This document shows positions 623 through 54,140 of a stretch of DNA of 64,000 nucleotides, piece by piece (position 1 is the stretch's first letter; each line of letters opens with the position of its first letter). The stretch is from NCBI GenBank assembly GCA_030390025.1, contig CM059432.1:3968001-4032000 (forward strand), in the 5' to 3' direction. The notes under the pieces are model-generated. The model did no database searches. It was not told where the DNA came from and saw nothing but the letters and a program-made list of their open reading frames with translations. The stretch comes from Squalus acanthias (taxonomy: Eukaryota). The position numbers and the translations under genes are program-made.

Positions 623-3600
623 GGGCTGAATTCTAATTGCCAAGGCGGGTTGGAGTTGGGTTGTGTGGTGGGCGGGTTCCGGAGCCGCTTCCGGCGGGAT
701 CAGCTGCTGATGTCCGATTTTGATTCAATGAGCTTGTTAGTTTCAATGGGGCGCGCTGGCCGGTCCAATGAGTGCGATCGTATCGGCTGGCCGCCTCTGA
801 TGATGTCATCATAGCTGCTGCTTTTAAAGCTGCCATCCAGCCTGAGCCTTTCTCTTGTGGATTCCTGGACTCATTGATATTGATTTATACGCAATGACTT
901 CTTCCAGAGGCAAGTCAGCTCCTCGTTTTAATGATGAGTCCCTCCAAGTTCTTGTGGATGCTGTCAGAGGGCGCAGGGAGATTCTCCTCCCTCCTGATGG
1001 CCGGAGGAAGCCTCCTCAGCAGATCAAGGCAGCCTGGCTGCGCATTGCTCAGGAGGTGAGCGCAAGGTGCATTTATGCACGCTCATGGATCCAGTGCCGC
1101 AAAAGATTTAATGATCTTGTGCGAACATCAAAAGTGAGTATCCCATCACACTTGCCTTCACTCTGCTTCCCTTCTCTTCTCATCACCAGCACTCTACATT
1201 GTAAGCCTCTCCTTCCCATCCCACCTTACCCTTACTTCCCTTGCACCCTTTCCTATCCATCTCTGTGTCTGCACTGAATCACTTCAGCATCCTGCCTATA
1301 CACCCCTTAGACTCGCTCTCACTGTCATGCAGTGACAACAACCAACAACGCACAGGGAGCTACCTTCCTCTTGGCACCTTACCCCATCTTCATCTCACTC
1401 AAAGCTTCTATGGAAGGGATTAATCACACTCACTCCATCACTGTGGCTGAAACACCGCTTGTGTCCCTCCTTGCAGGAAATGATAGCCCACAATAAGAGG
1501 GAGAGAGCACTGACTGGAGGAGGAACAGTTTCCCTCGCAACATTGACCACTGCTGAGGAGGCTGCATACGAGATTGTTGGAGGTGGCGAGGACCTGGAAG
1601 TGGGCGATGGAGAGGCGGGCACACTAGAGGAAGCTGGTGACATAATAGAGTTTCATCCCTCTCAGAATGCAATGGCATATGATGTCCATAGAGAATCGCA
1701 TTGCATCATCTGCTCAAAAGGATGTGTCTGCTACATCAATATCAGATGTCTAAATCATGCCTTTACTCTCCCACAAGACCATCGAGCGCCCCCCTCCCCA
1801 CGATCCAGGACGAAGAGCTGGACATCTCCTCAGAGGAACCTGAAGCCTCCGAGGGACCAGCTTCACCAGGACTCAGTGCACCCAGCACCAGCGCAGCGAC
1901 GCACACCTCGGTGGGGCCCTCGCGTGTTGCCACCTGGTCTATCACAGTGCACAAGTGAGCATCAGCAGATGGTGGAGACAGCGACAGCAGTGGAGAGTCC
2001 TCCTTGTAGGTCGCAGGACTCTCCTAGCTCTGCTGAGCTGCATGCAAATGCTGTGCCTCTGGGGCCATCCAGAAAAAGAGCCTCTCGGGAAATACAGGAA
2101 CAAGTGCAGGTGTCTCTGGAAGGGTTTGCCTCCAGGGTTAGTGCGAGTGTGGAGAGAATGGAGGAGTCCATCTCTAACATCAGCACTGCCGTGGTGGAGG
2201 TAATGGCGCATGAACGCACCACCATGGATAGGATGGCAATCTCCGTGGAAAGGCTGGCTACCTCAGTGGAAAGGACGGCTACGGCCATGGAGGAAATAAG
2301 TCGCCAGAGTCAGGAAAACATGGTGACTGTTCAAAATAGAATGTCATCTCTGGAGGTGCAATGGGCAGCTATTGAGCAGAGAGACCAGGGCTTCATGGAT
2401 GTCCTTTTGAGGAGGACTGCCAGTGCAGATACGGGTCCTCATGGTCCCCCTGATGTGCAGCAAGGTGCTCTCCAGCCACTTGCCAGCACTGAGGTGCAGC
2501 TGACCCTTGAGAGGGATGTTGTTGGCAAGACTGAAGGAAGTGTGGGCTCCTCTCAAAGCGCTCACACGACCATGCCACTGCGGAGCCCTCGGTCAGAGAC
2601 CCACTTTGCAGAGACAACTGAGGTGGCCGTTTCAGCCCCTGCACAGCCGCAGGAAGAGCAGACTGTGGAGGAGCCCTCCTAGGCTCCCAAACCCAGAGGA
2701 CGCCCGCCAAAGGCATCTAAGTAAGAGCAGCATCCTAGTCAGCAAGGTGCCTCTACATCTGCTAAAGCCACAGGGGAAGCACCACGTAGAAGCACGCGTA
2801 AGAGAAAGATTAAGCACCTATAGTCACAAGGGGAGTCACTTGGGTGATTTATCTTTTTTTCATTACTGTTATTGGTTTATTATCCTTTTGTGATGTGTAA
2901 AAGAAAAATTATGGCAAACAGTTGATTGTGTGGCCTATGTGTTATGGAAATGGCAAAAGCGCATTGAGGGCTCAGGGCGACTTGCTTTTGTAATGCTGAT
3001 GGTAAAAGTGATAGGAAATAACAGGGTATAGCAGAGATGATGTATGACATTGGACAAATGTCGCCTGCAATTACAGAGCCATATGGTAGCCACCTATGGT
3101 TGAAGAGTAAGCTTATGGTAGTGTGGCATGGCAGTGTGCATACCCTGGTTGACGGGCAGCAGTGAACTGGAGGGATGCTGCATTGGTCACAACAGGGCAT
3201 GCAAGGCTCCCCTCGTCCTCCTCGTACTCCTCTTCCCAGTAAGATCTGCACTGAGCCACGCGGCTGCTCCTCCTCCGATTATGAGGACCAGGATGAGAGG
3301 GCATAAATGTTTCCCATCCCCTTGCTATAGATTTCATTTGAGGCAACAATCTTGCAAGCGCACAGTCGAAGTGGCCTGAAATAATTCCATTCATGACACA
3401 CTGCAGATGGATGTCAGCTTTAACAGTCACAAGGTCAGTAGATGTGCAAAATCTTATCCCATACCTACAACAGCAAAGTTGTTGCACTTGAATGTTAATC
3501 ATGTTTCAGGGGCGCTTTTAAAGTGCTCCACCAATGCATACAAATCATGTCCTCCAGCAACTCGTCTCCTTGAACCTGGCCTTTTTCTGACTAGTTGGGA

Positions 3601-3839: not shown

Positions 3840-4228
3840 TTGAGTTCAAATCCTACCACAGCACCTGGGAAATTTAGGTTTAATTAAATAAATCTGGAAT
3901 GAAAAGCTAGTATCAGTAATGGTGACCATGAAACCACTGGATTTCATAAAAACCCACCTGGTTCACTCATGTCCTTTAGTGAAGGAAATCTGCCATCCTT
4001 ACCTGGTCTGGCCTATATGTGACTCCAGACCCACAACAATGTGGTTGACTCTTAACTGCCCCTCTGAAATGGCCGAGCAAGACACTCAGGTGTACTCAAG
4101 AGGCGGCTGACCACCACCTTCTCGAGGACAATTAGGGATGGGCAATAAATGCTGGCCTTGTCAGCAACACCCACATCCCATGAATGAATAAAAGAAAGTG
4201 AGAGGAGTTTGAAGCATGTAAACTAAAA

Positions 4229-6197: not shown

Positions 6198-9117
6198 CTA
6201 ATCCCATATTCCAGCATTTGGTCCGTAGCCTTGTATGCTATGGCATTTCAAGTGCTCATCCAAATGCTTCTTGAATGTTGTGAGGGTTCCTGCCTCCACA
6301 ACCCATTCAGGCAGTGAGTTCCAGACTCCAACCACCCTCTGGGTGAAAAAGTTCTTTCTCAAATCCCTTCTAAACCTCCCGCCCTTTACCTTGAATCTAT
6401 GCCCCCTTGTTATAGACCCCTCTGCTAAGGGAAAAAGCTCCTTAGTATCCTTCCTATCTATGCCCCTCATAATTTTGTGCACCTCAATCATGTCCCCCCT
6501 CAGCCTCCTCTGCTCCAAGGAAAACAAACCCAATCTGCCCAGTCTCGCTTCATAGCTGAAGCACTCCAGCCCGGGTAACATTCTGGTGAATCTCCTCTGC
6601 ACCCTCTCCAAAGCGATCACATCCTTCCTGTAGTGTGGCGACCAGAACTGCACACAGTATTCCAGATGTGGCCTAACCAGTGTTCTATACAGCTCCATCA
6701 TAACCTCCTTGCTCTTATATTCTATGCCTCGGCTAATGAATGCAAGTATCCCATATGCCTTTTTTACCACCTTATCCACCTGTTCCGCCGCCTTCAGGGA
6801 TCTGTGTACTTGCACACCAAGATCCCTCTGACCCTCCGTCTTGCCTAGGGTCTTACCATTCATTGTGTATTCCCTTGCCTTGTTAGTCCCTCCAAAGTGC
6901 ATCACCTCGCACTTTTCCGGATTAAATTCCATTTGCCACTGTTCCGCCCATCTGACCAACCCATCTATATCGTCCTGCAGACTGAGGCTACCCTCCTCGC
7001 TATTTACCACCCTACCAATTTTTGTATCATCCGCGAACTTACTGATCATACCTTTTACATTCATATCCAAGTCGTTAATGTAGACCACAAACAGCAAGGG
7101 ACCCAGCACCGATCCCTGTGGTACCCCACTGGCCACAGGCTTCCAGTCACAAAAACAACCTTCGACCATCACCCTCTGCCTTCTGCCACTGAGCCAGTTT
7201 TGTATCCAATGTGCCAAGGCACCCTGGATTCCATGGGCTCTTACCTCCTTGACCAGTCTCCTGTGCGGGACTTTATCGAAGGCCTTACTGAAATCCATGT
7301 ATACCACATCCACTGTGTTACCCTCATCCACACACCTAGTCACTCCCTCAAAAAATTCAATCAAATTAGTCAGACATGATCTTCCCTTGACAAAGCCATG
7401 TTGGCTAACCCTGATTAATCATTGCCTCTCCAAGTGGAGACTGATTTTGTCCCTCAGAATTTTTTCCAATAATTTTCCTACCACTGATGTTAGGCTCACT
7501 GGCCTGTAGTTCCCCGGTTTTTCCTACTCCCTTTCTTGAATAATGGTACTACATTAGCGGTTCTCCAGTCCTCTGGCGCATCCACTGTGGCCAGAGAGGT
7601 TCTGAATATATGTGTTAGAGCCCCCGCAATCTCCTCCTTTGCCTCACACAGCAGCCTGGGATACATTTCGTCCGGACCTGGGGATTTATCCATTTTTAGA
7701 CCTGCTAAAACCGCCAATACCTCCTCCCTCTCGATGTTAAAATGTTCGAGTATATCACAGTCCCCCTGCCCTAATTTTATGTCTGCATCGTCCTTCTCCA
7801 TAGTGAAAACAGATGCAAAAAATTCATTTAGAACCCCACCTACATCTTCCGGCTCCACACACAGATTGCCACTTTTGTCCCTAATGGGCCCTACTTTTCC
7901 CTAGTTATCCTCTTACCCTTAATATACTTATAAAACATCTTAGGATTTACCTTTATTTTGCTCGCCAGTGTTATTTCATGGCCCCTCCTTGATCTCCTAA
8001 TTTCTTTTTTAAGTATCCCCCTGCACTTTTTGTACTCCTCTAGGGCTTCCTCCGTCTTTAGCATTTTGTATCTGCCAAAATCCCTCCTTTTTTTCCTGAT
8101 CCATTCTCGTATATCCCCTGACATCCAAGGTTCCCTGGGGTTTTTGGAACCACCCTTGACCTTTACGGGAACATGCTGCCATTGTATGATCTCAATCTCC
8201 CTTCTGAAAGAATCCCATTGCTCCAATGCGGATTTTCCTACAAGCAGCTGATCCCAGTCAATTTTGGCCAGATCCTGCCTTATTCTATTAAAATCGGCCT
8301 TCCCCCAATTTAGAACCTTTATTTCCGGCCCATCCCTGTCCTTTTCCATGACCACTTTAAATCTCACCGTATTATGGTAACTGTCACCAAAGTGCTCACC
8401 TACTAGCACTTCTTCCACTTGGCCGGCCACATTCCCTAGAATTAGGTCCAGTACCGCCCCCTCTCTTGTAGGACTTTCTACATGCTGGCTCAAAAAGCTC
8501 TCCTGGATGCACTTTAAGAATTTTGAACCCTCTAAGCCTTTCACACTCTGACTATCCCAGTTAATATTGGGGAAGTTGAAGTCCCCCATTATTATTACCC
8601 TATTATTTGCACATTTCTCTGAGATTTGCCTACATATCTGTTCCTCTATCTCCCCCTGACTATTTGGGGGCCTATAGTACGCTCCCAGCAAAGTGCTTGC
8701 CCCCTTTTTGTTTTTAAGCTCCACCCATATAGCCTCATTGGAGGAACCTGCTAATATATCATCCCTCCTTATGGCAGTAATTGATTCCTTAATTAATATT
8801 GCGACACCCCCTCCTCTTATACCTCCCCCTCTGTCTCGCCTGAAGATTCTGTACCCCGGAATATTGAGCTGCCAGTCTTGCCCCTCCCTCAACCATGTCT
8901 CCGTGATAGCAACAATATCATACTCCCATGTGTTTATCAACACCTTCAGTTCATCCACCTTATTCGCTAGACTCCTTGCATTAAAATAGATGCCTTCCAG
9001 CCTTGCTCTTACATGTTTGCCCTGTCTTCCAAGCTGACTTGTTTTTTTCTCTATATTTGACTGTACATCACCCCCTATTGTACCTCCACTCTGTATCCCA
9101 TCCCCCTGCCAAGTTAG
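6198..9117 (-). pseudogene. CR1 ORF2: APE endonuclease plus reverse transcriptase, two frameshifts
   Basis: [35 protein letters not shown]; frameshifts near 7895 and 7520. Confidence 0.92.
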
Positions 9118-10064
9118 TTTAAACCTCCCCCAACAGCGCTAGCAAACCTCCCCGCAAGGATATTTGTCCCGCTCTGGTTCAGGTGCAAACCGTCCGACTT
9201 GTACAAGTCCCACCTTCCCCAGAAGCAGGCCCAGTGATCCAGGAAACTAAAACCCTCCCTCCTGCACCAACTCTTTAGCCACGCATTCATCTGTTCTATC
9301 CTCCTATTCCTATACTCACTAGCACGTGGCACTGGGAGTAATCCAGAGATTACAACCTTTGAGGTCCTGCTCTTTAATCTGCTGCCTAGCTCCCTAAATT
9401 CTTGATGCAGGACCTCATCCTCCTTCCTACCTATGTCGTTGGTCCCAATGTGAACCACGACCTCTGCCTGCTCCCCCTCCCCCTTAAGAATGCCCTGTAG
9501 CCGCTCAGTGACATCCATGACCCTGGTCCCAGGGAGGCAACAAACCATCCTGGAGTCACGTTTACGGCCACAGAAACGCCTATCTGTTCCCCTTACGATA
9601 GAATCCCCTACCACTATTGCTCTCCCACTCTTTTTCCTCCCTTTCTGAGCAGCAGAAGCAACCCTGGTGCCAGGAAGTTGGCTGCTGCTGCACTCCCCTG
9701 GTGAGTCATCCCCCTCAACAGTATCCAAATCGGTATACCTGTTTGAAAGGGGGATAACCGCAGGGGTCCCCTGTACTTCCTTCCTGCCTCTAAAGCTCCG
9801 CCTGATGGTCACCCATTTCCCTTCTGCCTGTGCAGCCCTACCCTGCGGCATGACCAACTCGCTAAACGTGTTATCCACGACCCTCTCAGCATCGCGTATG
9901 CTCCAAAACTCATCCACCCGCAGCTCGAGCGCCGCAATGCGGTCTACAAGTAGCTGCAGCTGGATGCATTTCTCGCACACATGGTCCCCAGGGACACTGG
10001 CAGCGTCCCTAAATTCCCACATGGAGCAAGAGGAGCATAACACGGGGCTGATCTCACCTGCCAT
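9114..10064 (-). CDS. CR1 ORF1: zinc finger/leucine zipper plus SGNH/GDSL esterase-like domain
   Basis: 316 aa open; CxxC...CxxC, LQLLVDRIAALELRV, GDSIVRG, HIGTND, DGLH. Confidence 0.9.
   Translation of the reverse strand: MAGEISPVLCSSCSMWEFRDAASVPGDHVCEKCIQLQLLVDRIAALELRVDEFWSIRDAERVVDNTFSELVMPQGRAAQAEGKWVTIRRSFRGRKEVQGTPAVIPLSNRYTDLDTVEGDDSPGECSSSQLPGTRVASAAQKGRKKSGRAIVVGDSIVRGTDRRFCGRKRDSRMVCCLPGTRVMDVTERLQGILKGEGEQAEVVVHIGTNDIGRKEDEVLHQEFRELGSRLKSRTSKVVISGLLPVPRASEYRNRRIEQMNAWLKSWCRREGFSFLDHWACFWGRWDLYKSDGLHLNQSGTNILAGRFASAVGGGLN
9117..9123 (-). promoter_or_regulatory. Candidate -1 ribosomal frameshift slippery heptamer U_UUA_AAC
   Basis: GGT TTA AAC TAA at the ORF1 end; the -1 frame (CTA ACT TGG...) is open and in frame with ORF2, with no AUG before the EN domain. 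Confidence 0.65.
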
Positions 10065-10288
10065 GACCTACTCCTTTAATTAAATTAAAAATGTATTCAA
10101 TACCCCAGTTACAGATATACTCTAGGGCGCTTTATTTACCAACTGTCCCCACTACACCACAGAGACCCTAGAAATTTAACACCACAGAATTTAAGCTTAG
10201 AGAGAAATACTCACCAACCAATCACTTACCTGCTTTTTGGTGACGTCACACTTCGATTATTTTTCCCTCCGAGTTCGGAGACTGGTAC

Positions 10289-21384: not shown

Positions 21385-22212
21385 TTTTTAAATTAATTCC
21401 TGGGATGTGGGCATCGCTGGCAAGGCCAGCATTTATTGCCCATCCCTAATTGCCCTTGAGAAGGTGGTGGTGAGCCGCCTTTTTGAACCACTGCAGTCCC
21501 TGTGGTGAAGGTACTCCCACAGTGCTGTTAGGGAGGGAGTTCCAGGATTTTGACCCAGCGACGATGAAGGAACGGCTGATATACTTCCAAGTCAGGATGG
21601 TGTGTGACTTGGAGGGGAACTTGGAGGTGGTGGTGTTCCCATGCGCCTGCTGCCCTTGTCCTTCTAGGTGGAAGAGGTCGTGGGTTTGGGAGGTGCTGCC
21701 GAAGAAGCCTTGGCGAGTTGCTGCAGTGCATCTTGTAGATGGTACACACTGCAGCCATGGTACGCCGGTGGTGGAGGGAGTGAATGTTTAAGGTGGTGGA
21801 TGGGGTGCCAATCAAGTGGGCTGCTTTGTCCTGGATGATGTCGAGCTTCTTGAGTGTTGTTGGAGCTGCACTCATCCAGGCAAGTGGAGAGTATTCCATC
21901 ACACTCCTTACTTGTGCCTTGTAGATGGTGGAAAGGCTTTGGGGAGTCAGGAGGTGAGACACTCGCCGCAGAATACCCAGCCTCTGACCTGCTCTTGTTG
22001 CCACAGTATTTATGTGGCTGGTCCAGTTAAGTTTCTGGTCAATGGTGACCCCCCAGGATGTTGATGGTGGGGGATTCGGCGATGGTAATGCCGTTGAATG
22101 TCAAGGGGAGGTGGTTAGACTCTCGCTTGTTGGAGATAGTCATTGCCTGGCGCTTGTGTGGTGCATATGTTACCTGACACTTATCAGCCCAAGCCTGAAC
22201 GTCGTCCAGGTC
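21385..22212 (-). mobile_element. 3' fragment of the tRNA-headed LINE family
   Basis: ATRAGQRLGILRRVSHLL..IYKAQVRSVMEY; same tail as 51471-51718. Confidence 0.9.
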
Positions 22213-22494
22213 TTTTTGCTCAACTTGGGGTCAACTAGGATGGCGAGGTTACGGACAGTCTGGCTCGGCCAGGGAGGGCGGATGGAATCGGTGGCGAGGG
22301 AACTAGGGAATCACGGCTACCTTCTGCCTTACTTCAAAATCCTCCCGAGAAAACCTTCTTTTCAATCGCACCTGCATTTCTTGGCTAATAGTTTTTTAAC
22401 GGCGGTTTTCAAGGACATGCCCCATGTATACAAATTGCATTGTGCACAATTTTGATTATAATTGATTTTGCCAGCGTTCATGTTGTGAATGCTG

Positions 22495-23606: not shown

Positions 23607-24339
23607 TTAAGTTTATGTTGAAGCTTCTTTGAAATTACCCTCGTAAAACAGACCAGCTTTCAACGTAGGTTCCAGAGCAGTGTGCTTTTCAGTAAGACTT
23701 TAACCTTTCTCAGAAACTAATGCATAAGTAGCAATTGTTGTGATAATTATTAAAATATAATTGAACTGACCGCATAATTTCCTTATATATTCATTAAATT
23801 AGCCTAACACCCAATTATAAATGTACGTTGGCAATGTACTATTTTGAAACACATCAATGCTATTAGAAATCCATTAGTGATTTGACACAATGCTGCTTTT
23901 TCATTTAACTGTGTATTACAATTTCATTAAGATCATCCTCACCACTGGTTATTATACGGCAAGTCATCACAAACTGATTATTGTGGATACAGTACAGTAA
24001 CTCCATAACTTAAGTGAGACGGAGTCCTTACACAATTTGCAGTGGGTATAGAAATTCAAAAAGGTTTAATCATCATTTGGGTTCCACTAGGCTGAAGCCC
24101 AAAGCACTCACTTGGCATTACACTGTAAGCAATTTAAATTGATATTTTTCCAATGGTATGAGGCAACAGCAAGTATTCAATGAGACAAACTCAGACAAGG
24201 GCGGATTTTAATCGCATAAATTGAATAAAAACTTCAGACCTCTCTGAAAGCCTTTTGGTTCCTCTTCACAAACACTGGAGACATTTTCGTACCAAAGTTA
24301 CACCTCCATGAGTCTAGGTCCACCAGTTTAAAAAAATAA

Positions 24340-24898
24340 TTAATTCATGGAATGTGGGCGTTGCTGGCGAGGCCAGCATTTATTGCCCATCCCTAATTGT
24401 CCTTGAGCGCCGCCTTCTTGAACCGCAGCGGTCTGTGTGGTGAAGGTGCTCCCATAATGTTGTGGGGGGACTTTGCAGGGTCGACTGTGATGGGTACGCC
24501 TTTGTCATGTTCGGTGCCAAGATCGCTGGTGTGTGGTCCGTCAGGTCTTATTCTTAGTATACGTCTTTGTAGCGGTTTGGTACAACTGAGTAGCTCGCTG
24601 GGCCATTTCAGAGGGGCAGATAAGAGTCAACCACATTGCTGTGGGTCTGGAGTCACATATCGGCCAGACCGAGTAAGGACGGCAGATTTCCTTCCCTAAA
24701 GGACATTCGTGAACCAGATGGGTTTTTCACGACAATCCAGTAGCTTTATGGTCGCCATTACTGATACTAGCTTTTTATTCCAGATTTATTTAATTAACTG
24801 AATTTAAATTCCCCAGCTGCTGTGGTGGGATTTGAACTCACGTCTCTGGATCGTTAGTCCAGGCTTCTGGATTATTCGTCCAGTAACAAAACCACTAT
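24340..24898 (-). mobile_element. Internal-deletion derivative of the tRNA-headed LINE
   Basis: tRNA head plus 5' UTR to the first EN codons (gaccctgcaaagtcc) joined near 24460 to the 3' tail. Confidence 0.85.
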
Positions 24899-33844: not shown

Positions 33845-34765
33845 TTTTTTTTAATTTGTTCATGGGATGTGGGCGTCGTTGGCAAGGCCAGCATTTATTG
33901 CCCATCCCTAGTTGCCCTTGAGAAGGTGGTGGTGAGCCGCCTTCTTGAACCGCTGCAGTCTGTGTGGTGAAGGTGCTCCCACAGTGCTGTTAGGGAGGGA
34001 GTTCCAGGATTTTGACCCAGCGACGATGAAGGATCAGCGATATACTTCTAAGTCAGGATGGTGTTTGACTTGGAGGGGAACTTGGATGTGGTGGTGTTCC
34101 CATGCACCTGCTGCCCTTGTCCTTCTAAGTGGAAGAGGTTGCGGTTTTGGGAGATGCTGCCGAAGAAGCCTTGGTGAGTTGCTTCAGTGCATCTTGTAGA
34201 TGGTACACACTGCAGCCACGGTACGCCGGTGGTGGAGGGAGTGAATGTTTAAGGTGGTGGATGGGTGCCAATCAAGCGGGCTGCTTTGTCCTGGATGGTG
34301 TCGAACTTCTTGAGTGTTGTTGGAGCTGCACTCATCCAGGCAAGTGGAGAGTATTGCATCACACTCCTGACTTGTGCCTTGTAGATGGTAGAAAGGCTTT
34401 GGGGAGTCAGGAGGTGAGACACTCGCCGCAGAATACACAGCCTCTGACCTGCTCTTGTTGCCACAGTATTTATGTGGCTGGTCCAGTTAAGTTTCTGGTC
34501 AATGGTGGCCCCCAGGATGTTGATGGTGGAGGATTTGGTGATGGTAATGCCATTGAATGTCATGGGGAGGTGGTTAGACTCTCGCTTGTTGGAGATAGTC
34601 ATTGCCTGGCACTTGTGTGGCGCGAATGTTACCTGCCACTTATCAGCTCAAGCCTGAACGTCGTCCAGGTCTTGTTGCATGCGGGCATGGACTGCTTCAT
34701 TATCTGAGGAGTTGCGAATGGCGCTGAACATTGTGCAGTCATCAGCGAACATTCCCATCTCTGAC
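33845..34765 (-). mobile_element. 3' fragment of the tRNA-headed LINE family
   Basis: FADD region through the tail; matches 49695 onward. Confidence 0.9.
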
Positions 34766-35242
34766 TCATTTTTTTGCTGGGCTATGGGCAAAGACCGAAG
34801 GGAGGAGTGGGACTAAATTGGATAGCTCGTTCAAAGAGCCGGCACAGGCACGATGGGCCCAAGGGCCCAAACCAAGAGGGTGGTGAACCGATGTGAATTG
34901 AGCCTCGGGGCCCGTCAACAGGCCAGCTGGTCGTGCCTGCACTGGCAAATCGCCTGAGGAAAGACATCAATATGGAGCCACCAGCCTCAATGGCCCTCAG
35001 ATAAGACCTGGGATTACGGGGCCAACTCTCCAGGATTGGCCTGGAGTCTCCAGGAATTGATGATTAATGGCCAGGTCACTGCTTGGGGGCAACACCCGCG
35101 AGAAAAAGTATTGGGGTATTAAAAAACATATTTTTCTTTTACTTTCTTTGAACATTTCTGTTTACTAGTTATAAAAATATTGGAGATGGTTGGGGGGGGC
35201 GGGCAGTGCGGTGAAGGCTACTTGACTGACAATCATGCAAAT

Positions 35243-47335: not shown

Positions 47336-47591
47336 ACTTCATCTGCCTGCACGTTCTATATGATCCGAACTAAGGACCTTAAATTTGCCTATTATTGTAG
47401 CGAGCTACAACAGGCCAACTTTCATGGGCAAAGACTGGTGGAGAAAATTAAAATTAAATTGAAAAACGTCTTCAGTGTAGATGCTTCAAAGAAGCAACTC
47501 GACACAATGCTGAATAAGTACGAAAGCATGTTCACAGACAGTTACCTACATCGCAAGGTTTGTCTGCTGCACTCTCTGGGTCAAAAGGAAC

Positions 47592-47685
47592 GGGAATAGT
47601 AGCATAGTGGTTATGTTACTGGACTAGTAATCCAGAGGCCTGGATGAATGTTCCAGAGATGTGAGTTCAAATCCCACCACGGCAG
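47592..47685 (+). promoter_or_regulatory. tRNA-like head / type 2 Pol III promoter
   Basis: A box TAGCATAGTGG 47600-47610, B box GTTCAAATC 47665-47673; D stem GCAT/ATGT, anticodon stem CTGGA-CTAGTAA-TCCAG, second CTGGA/TCCAG arm, T arm. Confidence 0.85.
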
Positions 47686-50353
47686 CTGGGGAATTTAAAT
47701 CCAATTAAATAAATTTGGAATAAAAAGCTAGTATCAGGAATGGCGACCATGGAACTATCAGATTGTTGTAAAAACCCATCTGGTTCACTAATGCCCTTTA
47801 GGGAAGGAAATCTGCTGCCCTTATGTGACTCCAGACCCACAGCAATGTGGTTGACTCTTAACTGCCCTCTGCCGTCTGAAATGGTGTAACAAGCCACTCA
47901 GTTGTACACAATCGCTACAAATAAGAATAAAACTGGATGGACCACCTGGCTCTGGTTTCAGACACGACAACGGCACACCCAGCCCAGTTGACCCTGCAAA
48001 GTCCTCCTCACCAACATCTGGGGACTTGTGCCAAAGTTGGGAGAGCTGTCCCACAGACTAGTCAAGCAACAGGCTGACATAGTCATGCTCACAGAATCAT
48101 ACCTTTCAGCCAATGTCCCAGATTCCTCCATCACCAACCCTGCGGGATGTCCCATCCACTGGCAGGAGGGAGTGGTCCTGGGAGTCCTCAACATTGAAGT
48201 ATGGGACAAGGGAACCTCCTGCTGAGATTGCCCTCCCTCGGCTGATGGATCAGTACTCCTCCATGTTGAACACCACTTGGAAGAAGCATCTGAGGGTAGC
48301 AAGGGCACAGAATGTACTCTCAGTAGGGGACTTCAATGTCCATCACCAAGAGTGGCTGAAGAGCACCACTACTGGCCGAGTCCTGAAGGACATAACTGCC
48401 AGACTTGGACTGGGACAGATGATGAGAGAACCAACACGAGGGAAAACCCTACTTGACCTTGTCCTCACCAATCTACCTATGACAGATGGATCTGTCCATG
48501 CCAGCATTGATAGCAGTGACCACCGCACAGTCCTTATGGAGACAAAGTCTCGTCTTCACACTGAGGATACCCTCCATCGTGTTGTGTGGCACTGTGCTAA
48601 ATGGGATAGATTCTGAACAGATCTAGTAGCTTAAAACTGGGCATCCATGAGGCGCCGTGGGGCAGCAGAAGAATTGTATTCCACCACAATCTGTAACCTC
48701 AAGGCCCGGCATATCCCTCACTCTACCATGCCACCAACCCTGGTTCAATGAGGAGTGTAAAACAACGGAATGCTATAGACAGAGCTAAGCAATCCAACGG
48801 ATCAGATCAAAGTCCTGCCACATCCAGGAGTGAATGGTGGTAGACGACTAACGGCAGAAGGAGGCTCCATGAATATCCGCATCCTCAATGATGGCGGAGT
48901 GCAAAAGACAAGGTTGAAGCGTTTGCAACCATCTTCAGCCAGAAGTGCCGAGTGGATGATCCATATCTGCATCCTCCTGAGGTCCACACCATCACAAAAG
49001 CCAGTCTTCAGCCAATTCGATTCACTCCACGTGATATCAAGAAATGGCTCAGCGCACTGAATACAGCAAAGATTATGGGCCCCGACAACATCCCGGCTAT
49101 CGTGCTGAAGACTTGTGCTCCAGAACTAGCCGCACCTCTAGCCAGGCTGTTCCAGTACAGCTACAACACTGGCATCTATCCAACAATGTGGAAAACTGCC
49201 CAGGTAGCTCCTGTACACAAAAAGCAGGACAAATCCAATCTGGCCAATTATCGCCCCATAAGTCTACCCTCAATCATCAGCAAAGTGATGGAAGGTGTCG
49301 TCGACAGTGCTATCAAGCGGCACTTACTTATCAATAACCTGCTCACCGATGCTCAGTTTGGGTTCCGCCAGGACCACTTGGCTTCTGACTGATTACAACC
49401 TTGGTCCAAAGAGCTGAATTCCAGAGGTGAGTTGAGAGTGACTGCCCTTGACATCAAGGCAACATTTGACCATGTGTGGCATCAAGGAGCCCTAGTAAAA
49501 TTGAAGTCAATGGGAATCAGGGGGAAAACTCTCCACTGGCTGGAGTCATACCTAGCACAAAGGAAGATGGTTGTGGTGGTGGGAGGTCAATCATCACAGC
49601 CCCAGGACATCGCTGCAGGAATTCCTCAGAGCAGTGTCCTAGGCCCAACCATCTTCAGCTGCTTCATCAATGACCTTCCCTCCATCATAAAGTCAGAAGT
49701 GGGGATGTTCGCTGATGACTGCACAGTGTTCAGTGCCATTCGCAACACCTCAGATAATGAAGCAGTCCGTGCCCACATGCAACAAGACCTGGATGACATT
49801 CAGGCTTGGGCTGATAAGTGTGAAGTAACATTCGCGCCACACAAGTGCCAGGCAATGACTATCTCCAACAAGCGAGAGTCTAACCACTGCCCCTTGACAT
49901 TCAACAGCATTACCATCGCCAAATCCCCCACTATCAACATCCTGGGGTTCACCCTTGACCAGAAACTTAACTGGACCAGCCACACAAATACTGTGGCTAC
50001 AAGAACAGGTCACAGGCTGGGTATTCTGTGGCAAGTGTCTCACCTCCTGGCTCCCCAAAGCCTTTCTACCATCTACAAGGCACAAGTCAGGACTGTGATG
50101 GAATACTCTCCACTTGCCTGGATGAGTGCAGCTCCAACAACACTAAAGAAGCTGACACCATCCAGGAAAAAGCAGCCCGCTTGATTGGCACTCCATCCAC
50201 CACCTTAAACATTCACTCCACGTACTGTGGCTGCAGTGTGTACCATTTACAAGATGCACTGCAGCAACTCGCCAAGGTTTCTTCAGCAGCACCTCCCAAA
50301 CCCGCGACCTCTACCACCTAGAAGGACAAGGGCAGCAGGCGCATGGGAACACC

Positions 50354-51470
50354 GGAAGGGATAATTACTAGTCCTAGCTGCTTTTGGGCTACCCCGGATC
50401 AGGCGTATTCCTCAGACGTTCACTTTCAACTAAAGTTTGAGGTAGCCGAATCCTAAAGACGCTTAATTGGGTCTAAAGGTCCGGACTATCTCTCCCTAAA
50501 GGAAAGGAACAACCTGAAAATGTTACCGTCCTCCAGATAGCACTTTTAATAAGTTTAGCTAGACTGTAACGTTCCGGATATTATGAGGGTCCGGAAAACT
50601 CCCCCAGAATTCTGCAACTCCTCACCAAAGAGTGTACAGAGATTGAGTTCGCGAGTTTGATACAGAAGCCTTATGTGAGATAATTCTAAAAATATATAGA
50701 TTTATTAAAGAACCGACATGTAGTTTACAGTTGGTGAGTCAATCACAACATTAACAGTTCTAAAAAGAGAAAGCTTTACAATCTTATTATCAGAGATCCT
50801 TACTCTCAAATCTTAACTTCGTTACAGTTTTACAGTTCTTAAAGTTTATTCAGGATATCCACCAAAATCAAATACAGCACCTTTGATCCCCGCGGTACAA
50901 AGAGTTGTAGACTTACAGAGCTGCCTCTGAAGCTGAGAATGACTTTGTCCCTTCACAGCGAGTCTATTATCCCATTTGAGAGTTCAATATTTATACCCTT
51001 TTTCAGTGGTATTTTCTTTAAGGTTTTCTGCTGATGTAAGCTAATTATCTCTAGTCATTTTTCTGCTGACTTCTGCAATTCTTAGTCACCTCAGCTGGTA
51101 GCATTACAGAATCATATCTCTCCTCTAGGTGTTCCAAGCTTACCATAAAAAACGGTGTAACAGCAGGTGCGCTTTATTTGATGTCATTTTTACGAAGGCA
51201 GATGTTTGTGCTTCTTTACGAAGTGTAAATTAGAACACCTTGTACAGGGTGAACTATTGTCTTGTTCCCAAAGGTTCAGACTGTCAGGAGCCTTTAACCT
51301 TCTGTTTCAATAAGGTTATTGATTCAGTGTCAACAACTATCTTATCTTAATAGCCAGAATGCTGTCACAGCTTTTCCATAGTTTGGGTTTCCCAGTTTGT
51401 CATGTTTTAATAAAGCCAGAATTCTTTCATAGAATGGTGTATTTTTCTGAATATGGCTTATTCCTTCACA
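50354..51470 (-). mobile_element. Probable solo LTR (~1.1 kb)
   Basis: 4-bp TSD CACC; ends ggaagggataa / ttattccttcaca; minus-strand TATAAA (50990-50995) upstream of AATAAA (50845-50850, 50701-50706); noncoding. Confidence 0.75.
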
Positions 51471-52097
51471 CACCATCATCTGCAAGTTCCCCTCCAAGTC
51501 ACACACCATCCTGACTTAGAAGTATATTGGCCGTTCCTTCATCGTCGCTGGGTCAAAATCCTGGAACTCCCTCCCTAACAGCACTGTGGGAGCATCTTCA
51601 CCACACGGACTGCAGCGGTTCAAGAAGGCGGCTCACCACCACCTTCTCAAGGGCAATTAGGGAATGGCAATAAATGCTGGCATTGCCAGCGACACCCACA
51701 TCCCAGGAACTAATAAAAAAAAGGTTTTCTCCAAGCTTGAGCTGTCACACGCTTACGCGCAGCTGAATGTTGACGAAGAAAGTCAACAGTATCTCACTGT
51801 CAACGCACACAAGGGACTGTACTCATACACTCAGCTGCTGTATGGTGTAAAGTCCTCCCCCAAAATCTTCCCGGCTACGATGGATAAGATTTTGCATGGA
51901 GTTGCAAATTGCTTATTCAATCGATGTGCTGATTGCAACAAACAGCGAGGAAGAAAATCTAGAATAGTTAGATATAGTGCTTCAAAGGTTGAATGCCCAC
52001 AACGTCAAATTGAAAAGGAGCAAATGTGCTTTTGTGCGACCCGAGGTTGTGTACCTTGGTTTAAAAGTTGATGCAAATGGCTTGCAACCAGTGAAGG

Positions 52098-52698
52098 TTG
52101 AAGGAGCGGTGATATACTTCCAAGTCATGATGGTGTGTGACTTGGAGGGGAACTTGCAGGTGGTGGTGTTCCCATGCACCTGCTGCCCTTGTCCTTCTAG
52201 GTGGTAGAGGTCGCGGGTTTGGAAGGTGCTGCTGAAGAAGCCTTGACGAGGTGAGCAGGTTGGGCCTATACTCATTGGAGTTTAGAAGAATGAGAGGTGA
52301 TCTTATTGAAACATATAAGTTTCTGAAGGGGCTTGACAGGGTAGATGCAGAGAGGATGTTTCCCCTCGTGGGGAAATCTAGAACTAGGGGGCATCATTTC
52401 AGAATAAGGGGAAAACCTTTTAAATCAGAAATGAGGAGGAATTTCTTCTCTCAGAGGGTCGTGAATCTTAGGAATTCTCTTCCCCAGAGAGCTGTGGAGG
52501 CTGGGTCATTGAATATATTTAAGGTGGAGATAGACAGATTTTTGAACGATAAGGGAGTGAAGGGTTATGGGGAGCGGGCAGGGAAGTGGAGTTGAGGCCA
52601 AGATCAGATCAGCCATAATCTTATTGAATGGCGGAGCAGGCTCAAGGGCCTAAATGACCTACTCCTGCTCCTACGTCTTATGTTCTTATGTTCTTATG
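52098..52698. mobile_element. tRNA-LINE fragment (minus) plus CR1 3' fragment (plus) inserted in Gypsy pol
   Basis: Interrupts ...LQPVK | VDAVINAP... Confidence 0.85.
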
Positions 52699-54140
52699 TA
52701 CAAGTTGATGCTGTCATCAATGCTCCCAAGCCACAGAATGTGTCTGAGTTAAGATCTGTCCTTGGAATGGTCCAGTACTACGCACAATTCTTACCTGAGT
52801 TAGCGACCATGTTAGCTCCATTGCACGAGCTCCTCAAGAAGGATGTACAGTGGAAGTGTGCAAAAGCGCAACAGGAAGCTTACGACGCTTGTAAGAGAAG
52901 ACTCTCCAGCGATGCTCTACTTGTGCACTACGACACAGAGCGTGAGCTTAATTTAGTGTGCGATGCTTCCAGCTACGGTGTGGGAGCTGTCATAAGCCAC
53001 GTAATGGATGATGGCCAAGAGAAACCAATCGCATTCGCATTGCGAAACCGCGCAAAGAGCGAAGGAAACTACATGCAAATTGAAAAGGAAGCACTCGCCA
53101 TAGTGTTTGGAATCAAGAAATTCCAACAGTTCCTGATTGGCAGAAAGTTTACCCTGATAACCGATCACAAACTGCTCCGAGCAATATTGGAGTCCAAATC
53201 TGCCATCCCTGCAGTGTTGTTGTCACAATATGACTGCACGATTGAATATCGCATCTCAAAGCAAAACACAATCGCAGATGCATTGTCCAGGTTGCCACAT
53301 GCGGACTCGTGTGTTGGGAGTGAAGGTGCTATTTTCATGCTTGGTGCAATTGACAAAGACTTTCCTGTGAATGCAACTGAGATTGCAGATGCGACTCAAA
53401 AGGACTCAGTACTGAAAAGAGTGTACGAAAACACCTTGAATGGACGGACTGATCAGTGTCTGGACACAGAAGTGAAACTATTCCATAACCGACGTACTGA
53501 ACTGTCTTGTGAGCAAGGTTGTGTCAAGTGGGGAAACAGAGTGGGGGTACCTACTTCTTTGAGAGACAGAATTCTGGCCGAACTTCAAATTGAACATCCA
53601 GGGATCGTTAATATGAAATCAATTGCAAGAAGCTTTGTTTACTGGCCTGGATTGGACAGTGATCTTAAATCACTTGCCAGCAAATGCAGTGTTTGCCAAA
53701 ATTGCAGAAACAAACCACCCAAAACTCCACTACAACCCTGGTCATGGCCAAGTAAACCTTTTCAGAGAGTACATGCAGACTTCTGTGAGAAAGCAAATGA
53801 TTATTTCCTGGTACTTGTAGATAGTCACTCAAAGTGAATTGAAGTGAAACACATGGGTTCAAATACTACAACTGAAAGTACCATAGATGAGTTGAGGTCT
53901 ATCTTCGCATGTCATGGCTTATCTGAAGAGCTTGTTTCTGACAATGGTCCTCAGTTCCGTTCTGTTCTATTCATAAAATGGAACGGTATCAAACACACTC
54001 TCGTTCTACCATATCATCCAGCTTCAAACGGAGCAGCTGAAAGGTCAGTCAGAATAGTAAAAGAAGCTCTCAAAAAGCAAGTGTTGCAGGGTTGTTCGGG
54101 ACTCAGCATGAAGAACGTTTGCCAAATTTCTTGCTGAAGT
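52699..54140 (+). pseudogene. Gypsy pol: RT connection, RNase H, integrase
   Basis: CDASSYGVGAVISH, IEKEALAIVFG, HPG..CSVC, RVHADF, SDNGPQF, SNGAAERSV; stop at 53835. Confidence 0.9.

Follow-up and report, generated by a model that had tools for sequence, protein, structure and literature searches.

The 64,000-nucleotide stretch of Squalus acanthias contig CM059432.1 analysed here (the window) contains, at positions 47589-51718, a decayed copy of a very abundant long interspersed nuclear element (LINE) of ~3.3 kb with a single endonuclease-reverse transcriptase open reading frame (ORF). The family begins with a tRNA-derived head, and this architecture is constant across copies. Its sense strand lacks runs of four or more T (T4+) in a strand-specific manner, its 3' end carries a terminal T-run, and both of its ends recur in a derivative that has the form of a short interspersed nuclear element (SINE). 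Taken together, these features suggest that RNA polymerase III makes the full-length RNA of the LINE and that selection has kept the element terminator-free for this purpose. We infer this from the sequence, and polymerase III transcription appears compatible with every test that was run. Judged on its own, full-length transcription by polymerase III from the tRNA-derived head has, in our estimate, an even chance of being correct.

The copy in the window extends on the plus strand from 47589 to an A-run at 51714-51722 and is flanked on both sides by the target-site duplication (TSD) aaaagg (47583-47588 and 51719-51724). By direct reading, the left TSD lies in a Gypsy-type reverse transcriptase frame, and the Gypsy-type pol reading frame resumes on the far side of the insertion, where Pfam identifies RVT_1 (51661-52071) and, further on, RT_RNaseH_2 and Integrase_H2C2 (52596-53834) as domains of the host element. 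A preliminary description of this DNA, made from its letters alone, had proposed a single insertion bounded by this duplication inside a Gypsy reverse transcriptase, and both the duplication and the host frame confirm it. The TSD, the frequent 5' truncation of family members (at points from nt 59 to nt 1746 of the element), the A-rich 3' tail and the lack of long terminal repeats all identify the element as a LINE.

Within the copy, the head (47589-47690, plus strand) comprises an A box at 47600-47610, a duplicated anticodon-like arm and a B box at 47664-47674. It is followed by an AT-rich 5' untranslated body (47691-47906, plus strand) with two AATAAA motifs and several ATG triplets. The first part of the decayed ORF spans 47907-50353 on the same strand, with the endonuclease at ~48272-48532 and the reverse transcriptase at ~49222-49956 according to Pfam, and includes at 47917-47919 the site homologous to a conserved ACG codon described below. 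The ORF is then split by a later, nested insertion (50354-51469) that does not belong to the LINE: a T-rich segment of 1116 bp flanked by ACACC (50349-50353 and 51470-51474), with inverted ends of ~10 nt and 11 T4+ runs of its own. The remainder of the ORF (51470-51660, plus strand) encodes a C-terminal domain common to relatives and ends with the stop codon TAG at 51658-51660. The 3' tail module (51619-51718, plus strand; element nt 2914-3013) contains an AATAAA at 51669-51674 and is shared with the SINE; the last bases of the element are ...GGAACTAAT, followed by the A-run. This A-tail overlaps the right TSD (51714-51724 in all, plus strand), and the terminal T-run site is present here in its T1 form. 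Without the nested insert the copy is 3013 nt long. Several frameshifts and stops interrupt its ORF, and relative to other copies the element lacks 60-140 nt around nt 579-642 and ~100 nt around nt 1174-1182.

To follow the head and the ORF through the genome, we searched the 3.7-Gb assembly that holds the window. The first 812 nt of the element returned 12,115 first-look candidates, and in all 39 other scored places the alignment began somewhere in nt 1-29 and reached nt 564 or further, i.e., more than 200 nt into the ORF. Among 28 head-selected loci, from which one duplicate locus was dropped, 27/28 were collinear from the head into the endonuclease and reverse transcriptase, and 19 reached nt 1836 or beyond, nt 1836 being the limit imposed by the edge of the fetched locus. 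Two samples were taken blind to the head. In the first, 29 loci were selected by reverse transcriptase similarity, and the nine that reached nt 609 or less at their edge were extended by 800 nt; of these, six start at nt 1-5, one begins at nt 115, and the remaining two are truncated at about nt 510 and 609. The second consisted of eight copies with a near-intact ORF, in-frame over 933 amino acids (aa) with 1-3 stops, of which three start at nt 4 and five are truncated at nt 59, 82, 207, 356, and 373. Pooled, 9/17 head-blind copies begin at the head and 8/17 are 5'-truncated, and no alternative 5' end occurs among the 17. The 5' end is the same within a few nt in full-length copies, and all sampled full-length copies have the head joined to the ORF, so that the union of head and ORF noticed in one insertion holds for many. 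Two copies (L009 and L010) lie on the same contig, 3.5 Mb apart and on opposite strands, with identical flanks, which points either to segmental duplication in inverted orientation or to a locus assembled twice; one of the pair was excluded from all counts.

The family is also abundant beyond its full-length members. With the reverse transcriptase protein as the query, 451,323 first-look candidates were returned, a rough figure that should not be read as the number of copies, and 12 family fragments lie within the window. 31-mers of an old copy (L008:1301-3876) are present in assembled-contig runs of ~10 organisms; contigs from four of these organisms span head and ORF, and the contigs of at least one carry the SINE junction. 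Because other organisms' contigs carry the family, it must have arisen before several species diverged.

Full-length copies are 3.25-3.3 kb long and consist of a head of ~100 nt, an AT-rich body reaching to ~nt 300-330 and one ORF of ~960-970 codons that ends 60-90 nt before the 3' end of the element. In the window copy, Pfam recognizes Exo_endo_phos_2 (4.8e-9) and RVT_1 (2.4e-24) in this ORF; RVT_1 reaches 5.4e-39 in P0001, and matches to L1 ORF2p and R2 were obtained in PDB. Endonuclease and reverse transcriptase domains combined in one ORF are the mark of a LINE with an apurinic-type endonuclease. No ORF1 was found upstream of the endonuclease-reverse transcriptase ORF in the family copies examined. 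The preliminary description was thus right about the domains and the missing ORF1, whereas the ORF begins ~320-340 nt from the element start and not after ~400 nt. In the best copies among 49 places, one frame extends over 933 aa with 1-3 stops, the stops of 41 of the 49 being those counted in the search table, and the longest open stretch seen is 819 aa.

The start of this ORF is unusual. In the interval from the upstream stop to the first endonuclease motif, an in-frame ATG is present in 0/6 near-intact copies and in only 9/36 copies overall. The codon at the expected start is ACG in ~16 copies, ACA in ~7 and ATG in ~6, a pattern of decaying CpG, which indicates that the ATG forms are secondary. 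The conserved ACG site was seen in L176, L179, L181, L182, and L183, and lies ~310-480 nt from the element start where present. In the majority line of a 34-copy alignment, at least eight ATG triplets occupy the ~300-340 nt ahead of the ORF. Two AATAAA motifs fall within the first 135 nt of the sense strand, and counts taken up to the first in-frame ATG, which is 636-1158 nt in, give 14-23 ATG triplets. In one subfamily, an out-of-frame ATG opens a 48-codon ORF that overlaps the main ORF. Conventional cap-dependent scanning from the element's 5' end therefore seems unlikely, given the upstream ATG triplets and the missing in-frame ATG.

Among 5.8 billion proteins, the nearest ones are endonuclease-reverse transcriptases of 930-970 aa encoded on 3-4 kb contigs, with 37-47% identity. 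These single-ORF LINEs share the domain order and a C-terminal motif before the stop with the family studied here. They differ from it in that a tRNA-like match at E<=1 occurs in 0/29 relatives with a complete N-terminus and upstream sequence, and in that their T4 counts are normal. The reverse transcriptase is also 28% identical over 287 aa to that of a CR1-like element in the window, which places the two in the same broad group, whereas the CR1-like element has an ORF1 with an esterase domain. Members of the CR1 clade carry an ORF1 upstream of the pol ORF and end in short tandem repeats; our family has no ORF1, and its 3' end reads GAAT(T)n(A)n. RTE elements are ~3.2 kb long, with one long ORF that lacks its own ATG and a very short overlapping ORF1, and the organization found here, with no in-frame ATG and a 48-aa overlapping ORF in one subfamily, resembles theirs. 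The reverse transcriptase motifs, judged against what we take to be the clade-specific ones, look closer to the CR1/Jockey group. Comparisons with Pfam, with PDB sequences, with a protein atlas and with the 5.8 billion proteins, whose names are uninformative, yielded no clade assignment.

The head was examined with two tRNA-finding methods. The Rfam tRNA model matches 47599-47678 with 26.3 bits (E 0.025), short of its gathering score of 29, over model positions 7-64 of 71. Since only these positions align, the head is without an acceptor stem, and an Rfam alignment from a scan of 14 further heads, of which one reaches E<=1, shows that the anticodon-like arm is duplicated in tandem. ARAGORN made no call on the head in the window and called it in only 3/34 family copies; these three predictions differ in isotype and so point to no single parent tRNA. 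The A box matches TRGCNNAGTGG exactly and the B box matches GGTTCGANNCC at 9/11 positions, both of which we take to be the consensus. The boxes are 53 nt apart, and the first base of the element is 11 nt ahead of the A box. Two LINE subfamilies differ at four head positions, one of them at an N position of the A box and none in the B box. Judged by these comparisons and the 34-copy alignment, the head is a typical degenerate tRNA-derived SINE head with a duplicated anticodon-like arm. Of the earlier characterization as a tRNA cloverleaf with consensus A and B boxes, the tRNA origin and the A box stand, whereas the clean cloverleaf and the full B-box consensus do not. One full-length copy (L062+L050) carries a partial second head-like stretch directly 5' of the complete head, as if by tandem partial duplication. 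Elsewhere in the window, at 551-612 on the plus strand, a stretch of 62 nt that is 87% identical to element nt 4-65, within the head, stands alone, with no family sequence after it.

The most distinctive property of the LINE is its T-run content. On the sense strand of the window copy (2765+248 nt), we counted no T4+ run and 15 runs of four or more A, in agreement with the preliminary reading by eye of no such T-run and over a dozen A-runs. That reading had extended to two 3' copies near 21385 and 33845. These are 5'-truncated LINE copies on the minus strand at 21392-22219 (element nt 2191-3009, tail T3A7) and 33850-34766 (element nt 2103-3013, tail T2A9), and both are indeed free of sense T4. 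The ten other family fragments in the window hold one T4 in 4258 nt. On either strand of the window, the longest T4-free stretch is the LINE itself with 3119 nt, and the runner-up measures 1479 nt.

The same holds for the family as a whole. In 57 copies totalling 116,397 nt, 16 T4+ runs were observed and 170 are expected from composition alone, and T5+ runs are absent; the corresponding numbers of observed and expected runs are 571 and 558 for A, 289 and 237 for G, and 364 and 515 for C. The depletion increases with run length (observed/expected: TT 3033/3140, TTT 338/651, T4 16/135, T5 0/28). All 16 T4 runs consist of exactly four T and are distributed over 14 sites, each found in one copy or in two by recurrent change. 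Since they are private, the source sequences held no T4, and the family's ancestral sequence was free of T4+. The eight near-intact copies contain three T4 in 25,176 nt compared with ~32 expected, and neither T4 nor TCTTT was found in three near-intact full-length copies (3252-3297 nt).

Other LINEs do not behave in this way. The remaining LINE ORFs in the window contain 41 T4+ runs in 10.9 kb vs 26 expected, and the CR1-like element at 6201-10067 (minus strand) has 16 in 3.87 kb, which bears out the earlier remark that CR1 sense strands here contain many. As a broader control, we used 80 loci of related LINEs from public metagenome contigs. Over whole loci these hold 2520 T4 vs 1949 expected (1.3x), the lowest ratio for any of them being 0.57, and their ORFs are at or above expectation; relatives of equal T content (0.21-0.23) are also near the expected T4. 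Among their longest T4-free stretches, the median length is 504 nt and the greatest 1644 nt. The comparison with head-less relatives that the preliminary description had foreseen thus set T4 at 1.3 times expectation against an ancestor without any. For the ORF, a uniform draw of synonymous codons predicts ~6.3 T4, with a probability of finding none, P(0), of ~4e-4.

At the 3' end, a variable T-run stands directly after a conserved ...GAA and before the A-run, with an AATAAA ~46 nt upstream. Among 42 LINE 3' ends, we found T1 in 18, T2 in 9, T3 in 4, T4 in 2, T5 in 5, and T6, T9, and T10 in one each, one end being cut by the end of its contig; T4+ is thus present in 10/42 ends and T2-3 in 13/42. 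The eight near-intact copies have runs of 5, 3, 2, 5, 10, 3, 1, and 2. Copies with long T-runs are scattered over a tree of 29 3' ends, which suggests that the run length is reset at each copying event; for the same reason, we rejected the T-run as a subfamily marker. Target-site sequence was rejected as its source in the full-length copy L046, in which the duplicated flank appears to begin after the A-run; the other flanks compared showed no clear duplication.

By analogy, this 3' layout of AATAAA, T-run, and A-tail resembles that of T+ SINEs. As defined by Kramerov's group, T+ SINEs carry an AATAAA, a polymerase III terminator (T4+ or TCT3+) or a T2-3 rudiment of it, and an A-tail, in this order; polymerase III terminates inside the T-run, which makes the run shorter in descendant copies, and the class is reported to be known only from placentals (PMC9599045). 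As in B2, Dip, Ves, and Can, the T length varies between copies. The difference is that those T+ SINEs are short, non-coding, and mobilized by L1 (PMC9599045), whereas here a layout of this type is found on a 3.3-kb coding LINE in a cartilaginous-fish-like genome, with the AATAAA ~46 nt upstream.

The family shares its ends with a SINE of ~420 bp, which is the LINE's first 318 nt, i.e., head and AT-rich body, joined to its last 100 nt. A 5'-truncated copy is present in the window at 3841-4193 on the plus strand (element nt 74-323 joined to 2915-3013). A 234-nt query across its junction was matched over the full length by 40/40 scored places, with 89-93% identity in the 39 others, and returned 5,415 first-look candidates. 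The junction nt 318/2914 is common to SINE copies: three of five further loci run from nt 11-16 to 318 and continue with 2914-3013, and the other two have their 5' part cut or interrupted. The SINE has its own diagnostic base near the start, and the homology between LINE and SINE ends ~20-30 nt before the ORF. Four nt of microhomology (TCAA) at the junction are equally compatible with deletion within the LINE and with capture of the 5' part of the SINE by the LINE. SINE2 elements are short (to ~600-700 bp) and non-coding, which is true only of the ~420-bp derivative and not of the coding LINE of 3.25-3.3 kb. Other deletions occur as well. A 560-bp derivative at 24339-24898 on the minus strand (element nt 16-429 joined to 2873-3009) is rare and was rejected as an amplified family, since only 1/39 other scored places spans its junction, and a further deleted copy joins nt 4-283 to nt 1621-3013.

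How could such an element be propagated? In the model that we propose, TFIIIC and polymerase III would use the head as an internal promoter, with a start ~11 nt upstream of the A box, and polymerase III would read through the whole element because its sense strand contains no T4+ or TCTTT terminator. Transcription would end at the T-run that immediately follows the last element bases in source copies. As in the T+ SINEs of mammals, the upstream AATAAA would then assist polyadenylation of the RNA, which in its full length would be copied by target-primed reverse transcription. As an in-frame ATG is missing from the ORF, the protein might be made from the same uncapped RNA by an unconventional, cap-independent start; alternatively, it may derive from rare polymerase II read-through transcripts, the polymerase III RNA being mainly a template for copying. 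Internal deletion from nt 318 to nt 2914 would give rise to the ~420-bp SINE, which would use the same head and tail. Polymerase III transcription gains strength from the T+-like T-run before the A-tail and from the amplified SINE that the same 5' module would drive. The complete model is that of a protein-coding LINE, autonomous at the level of the family, transcribed by polymerase III from end to end, purged of terminators over 3.3 kb, stopping at its terminal T-run with subsequent polyadenylation, and spawning SINEs by internal deletion. We regard it as tentative, with a chance slightly short of even.

Several observations weigh against this model. Its transcript would be unprecedented, 3.3 kb being a multiple of the length of any element considered to be transcribed by polymerase III. 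In the available part of Kojima (2024, PMC10886601), weak processivity of polymerase III is cited as a limit on the length of SINEs and terminal-repeat retrotransposons in miniature (TRIMs), LINEs are said to use polymerase II, and autonomous partners are argued, from the same processivity, to depend on polymerase II. The head falls below the Rfam threshold, and only 1/14 further heads reaches E<=1. A terminal T4+ is present in 0/22 ends of the derived SINE, which is expected to be the clearest polymerase III product. Moreover, AATAAA and an A-tail are also expected from a polymerase II transcript, and cleavage may occur within a U-rich stretch. With regard to autonomy, an intact ORF was found in 0 of 16 copies whose frames were read, and the window copy is likewise broken; an uncapped RNA with ATG triplets at or above chance in its 5' region and no in-frame ATG in its ORF would be a poor mRNA.

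The statistics of the T-runs call for equal caution. As the copies share ancestry, the effective sample is approximately one ancestral 3.3-kb sequence, for which ~4.5 T4 are expected from composition with a P(0) of ~0.01. T3 is halved too (338 vs 651), and a Markov estimate from the TTT and TT counts expects 36 T4, compared with the 16 observed. C-richness and a preference for TTC over TTT (41:11) explain part of the T4 depletion. In a codon-shuffled control of the kind that had been envisaged, permuting the ORF's own synonymous codons lowers the expectation to ~2.8 T4 and raises P(0) to ~0.04, compared with ~4e-4 for the uniform draw. Of the outcomes named beforehand as fatal to the preliminary reading, the two that concern sequence, namely T4+ runs at the expected frequency in the consensus and a head joined to the ORF in this copy only, did not occur. 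The earlier claim of selection for full-length polymerase III transcription stands in part. The head-ORF unit, the T4-free ancestor, and the T4-rich head-less relatives support it, while polymerase III and selection enter it by inference, and the depletion of T3 and the own-codon permutation count against it.

The chief alternative is an ordinary polymerase II LINE in which 5' switching, by a template jump onto SINE RNA or by recombination, replaced the 5' untranslated region with the head and body of the LINE's own SINE parasite. The head would then be a polymerase II promoter or enhancer or a mere passenger, the lack of T-runs would follow from composition and codon usage, and the terminal T-run would be a U-rich polyadenylation element. 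LINE 5' switching is documented, according to the available part of a preprint (bioRxiv 10.1101/2022.11.04.512097), and the end of the LINE-SINE homology ~20-30 nt before the ORF is what a jump near the LINE's 5' end would leave. The length and coding capacity suit polymerase II, AATAAA and an A-tail are present, and the T3 depletion and the own-codon P(0) of ~0.04 are in its favour as well. However, comparable avoidance of T-runs was seen in 0/80 related LINEs and in no co-resident LINE, even at a T content of 0.21-0.23, and cleavage upstream of a U-rich element would not leave U residues between the element and the poly(A). The two AATAAA motifs within the first 135 nt of the sense strand also argue against a polymerase II transcript, and the AT-rich 5' region, with at least eight ATG triplets before an ORF that has no in-frame ATG, is awkward for cap-dependent scanning. 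We consider this alternative possible, though doubtful.

The head could also act in RNA form, as a processing signal at which RNase P or RNase Z cuts LINE RNA out of host read-through transcripts and so defines its 5' end, a role analogous to that of the self-cleaving ribozyme of R2. This would account for the precise 5' ends common to the copies, and since copies are found everywhere in the genome, read-through RNA must exist. However, the head has no acceptor stem (Rfam model positions 7-64 only), ARAGORN fails on 31/34 copies, and neither the strand-specific lack of T4 nor the terminal T-run is explained, which makes a processing role very improbable. Finally, nested repeats are common in the window, and it would be plausible a priori that the head-ORF junction is an accident of this locus, i.e., a SINE beside a truncated LINE, or a product of misassembly. 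However, the same junction, without an intervening SINE tail, recurs in dozens of copies spread over many contigs, and contigs of other organisms span head and ORF, so that an accidental origin is refuted and retains practically no probability.

Transcription of the LINE by polymerase III would set it apart from the systems that it otherwise resembles. LINEs are usually transcribed by polymerase II, or in the case of R2 by polymerase I read-through, and SINEs by polymerase III. Like tRNA-derived SINEs (SINE2), our family starts at its very 5' terminus with a tRNA-derived head that contains A and B boxes, lacks internal T4, and has a body and tail common to a LINE and its SINE. R2 provides a precedent for a LINE that relies on a polymerase other than II, with uncapped RNA and no conventional AUG start. 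R2, however, lacks its own promoter, its RNA being co-transcribed by polymerase I and freed by a ribozyme, and its insertion is site-specific, whereas the LINE described here would carry an internal polymerase III promoter and its insertions are dispersed.

Bipartite SINEs, in which the 5' end of a LINE is combined with its 3' end, are known, examples being Bov-tA, AfroSINE, and SINE2-1_ACar; in the available part of their description, LINE 5' parts in SINE bodies are reported only for the RTE and Vingi clades, and the bipartite LINEs are treated as polymerase II units (Kojima 2018, PMC5786205). The ~420-bp derivative is exactly such a SINE. The difference lies in the position of the head, which is here on the full-length coding LINE itself, whereas Kojima (2018, PMC5786205) places it upstream of a head-less bipartite LINE and, in the parts covered, describes no head-bearing LINE. 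Recruitment of a small-RNA-derived polymerase III promoter by a retrotransposon that is not a SINE has a parallel in TRIMp3 and Cassandra, which differ in being non-coding and only 0.3-1.3 kb long, as far as the available part of that work describes them (Kojima 2024, PMC10886601). In a search of the full-text literature, no LINE was described as having a tRNA-derived head or as being transcribed by polymerase III; the search extended to articles and not to Repbase or Dfam, where the family may be catalogued.

If the polymerase III model is correct, the LINE would violate the rule by which polymerase II transcribes LINEs and polymerase III transcribes SINEs, and would in effect be a SINE that kept or gained genes. 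Its transcript would represent by far the longest natural polymerase III transcription unit, and simple internal deletion would offer a one-step route for the birth of SINEs. The combination of a SINE promoter module, terminator avoidance, and a T+-type end in a LINE makes the rule of the polymerase split directly testable. Even if polymerase II makes the RNA, the family informs the origin of SINEs, since either the SINE is a head-bearing LINE minus its ORF or the LINE captured the promoter of its parasite. LINE-derived SINE bodies, reported so far for the RTE and Vingi clades (PMC5786205), and the T+ tail layout, reported for placental mammals (PMC9599045), both gain a wider distribution through this family.

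Other features of the window were annotated along with the LINE. At 51775-51871 (minus strand), inside the Gypsy reverse transcriptase frame, ARAGORN calls a 97-nt tRNA-Ala; this is probably a false call, since a permissive Rfam scan of 47400-52000 does not list it. The CR1-like LINE at 6201-10067 (minus strand) is nearly intact, with ORFs of 406, 415, and 317 aa that include RVT_1, an endonuclease, and an ORF1 of the GDSL-lipase/esterase type, and its sense strand is G-rich and C-poor. At 846-1274 (plus strand), an ORF encodes a Myb/SANT-like DNA-binding domain and is followed at 1336-2679 (plus strand) by a 448-aa ORF with no Pfam match; the two may be the two genes of a DNA transposon.

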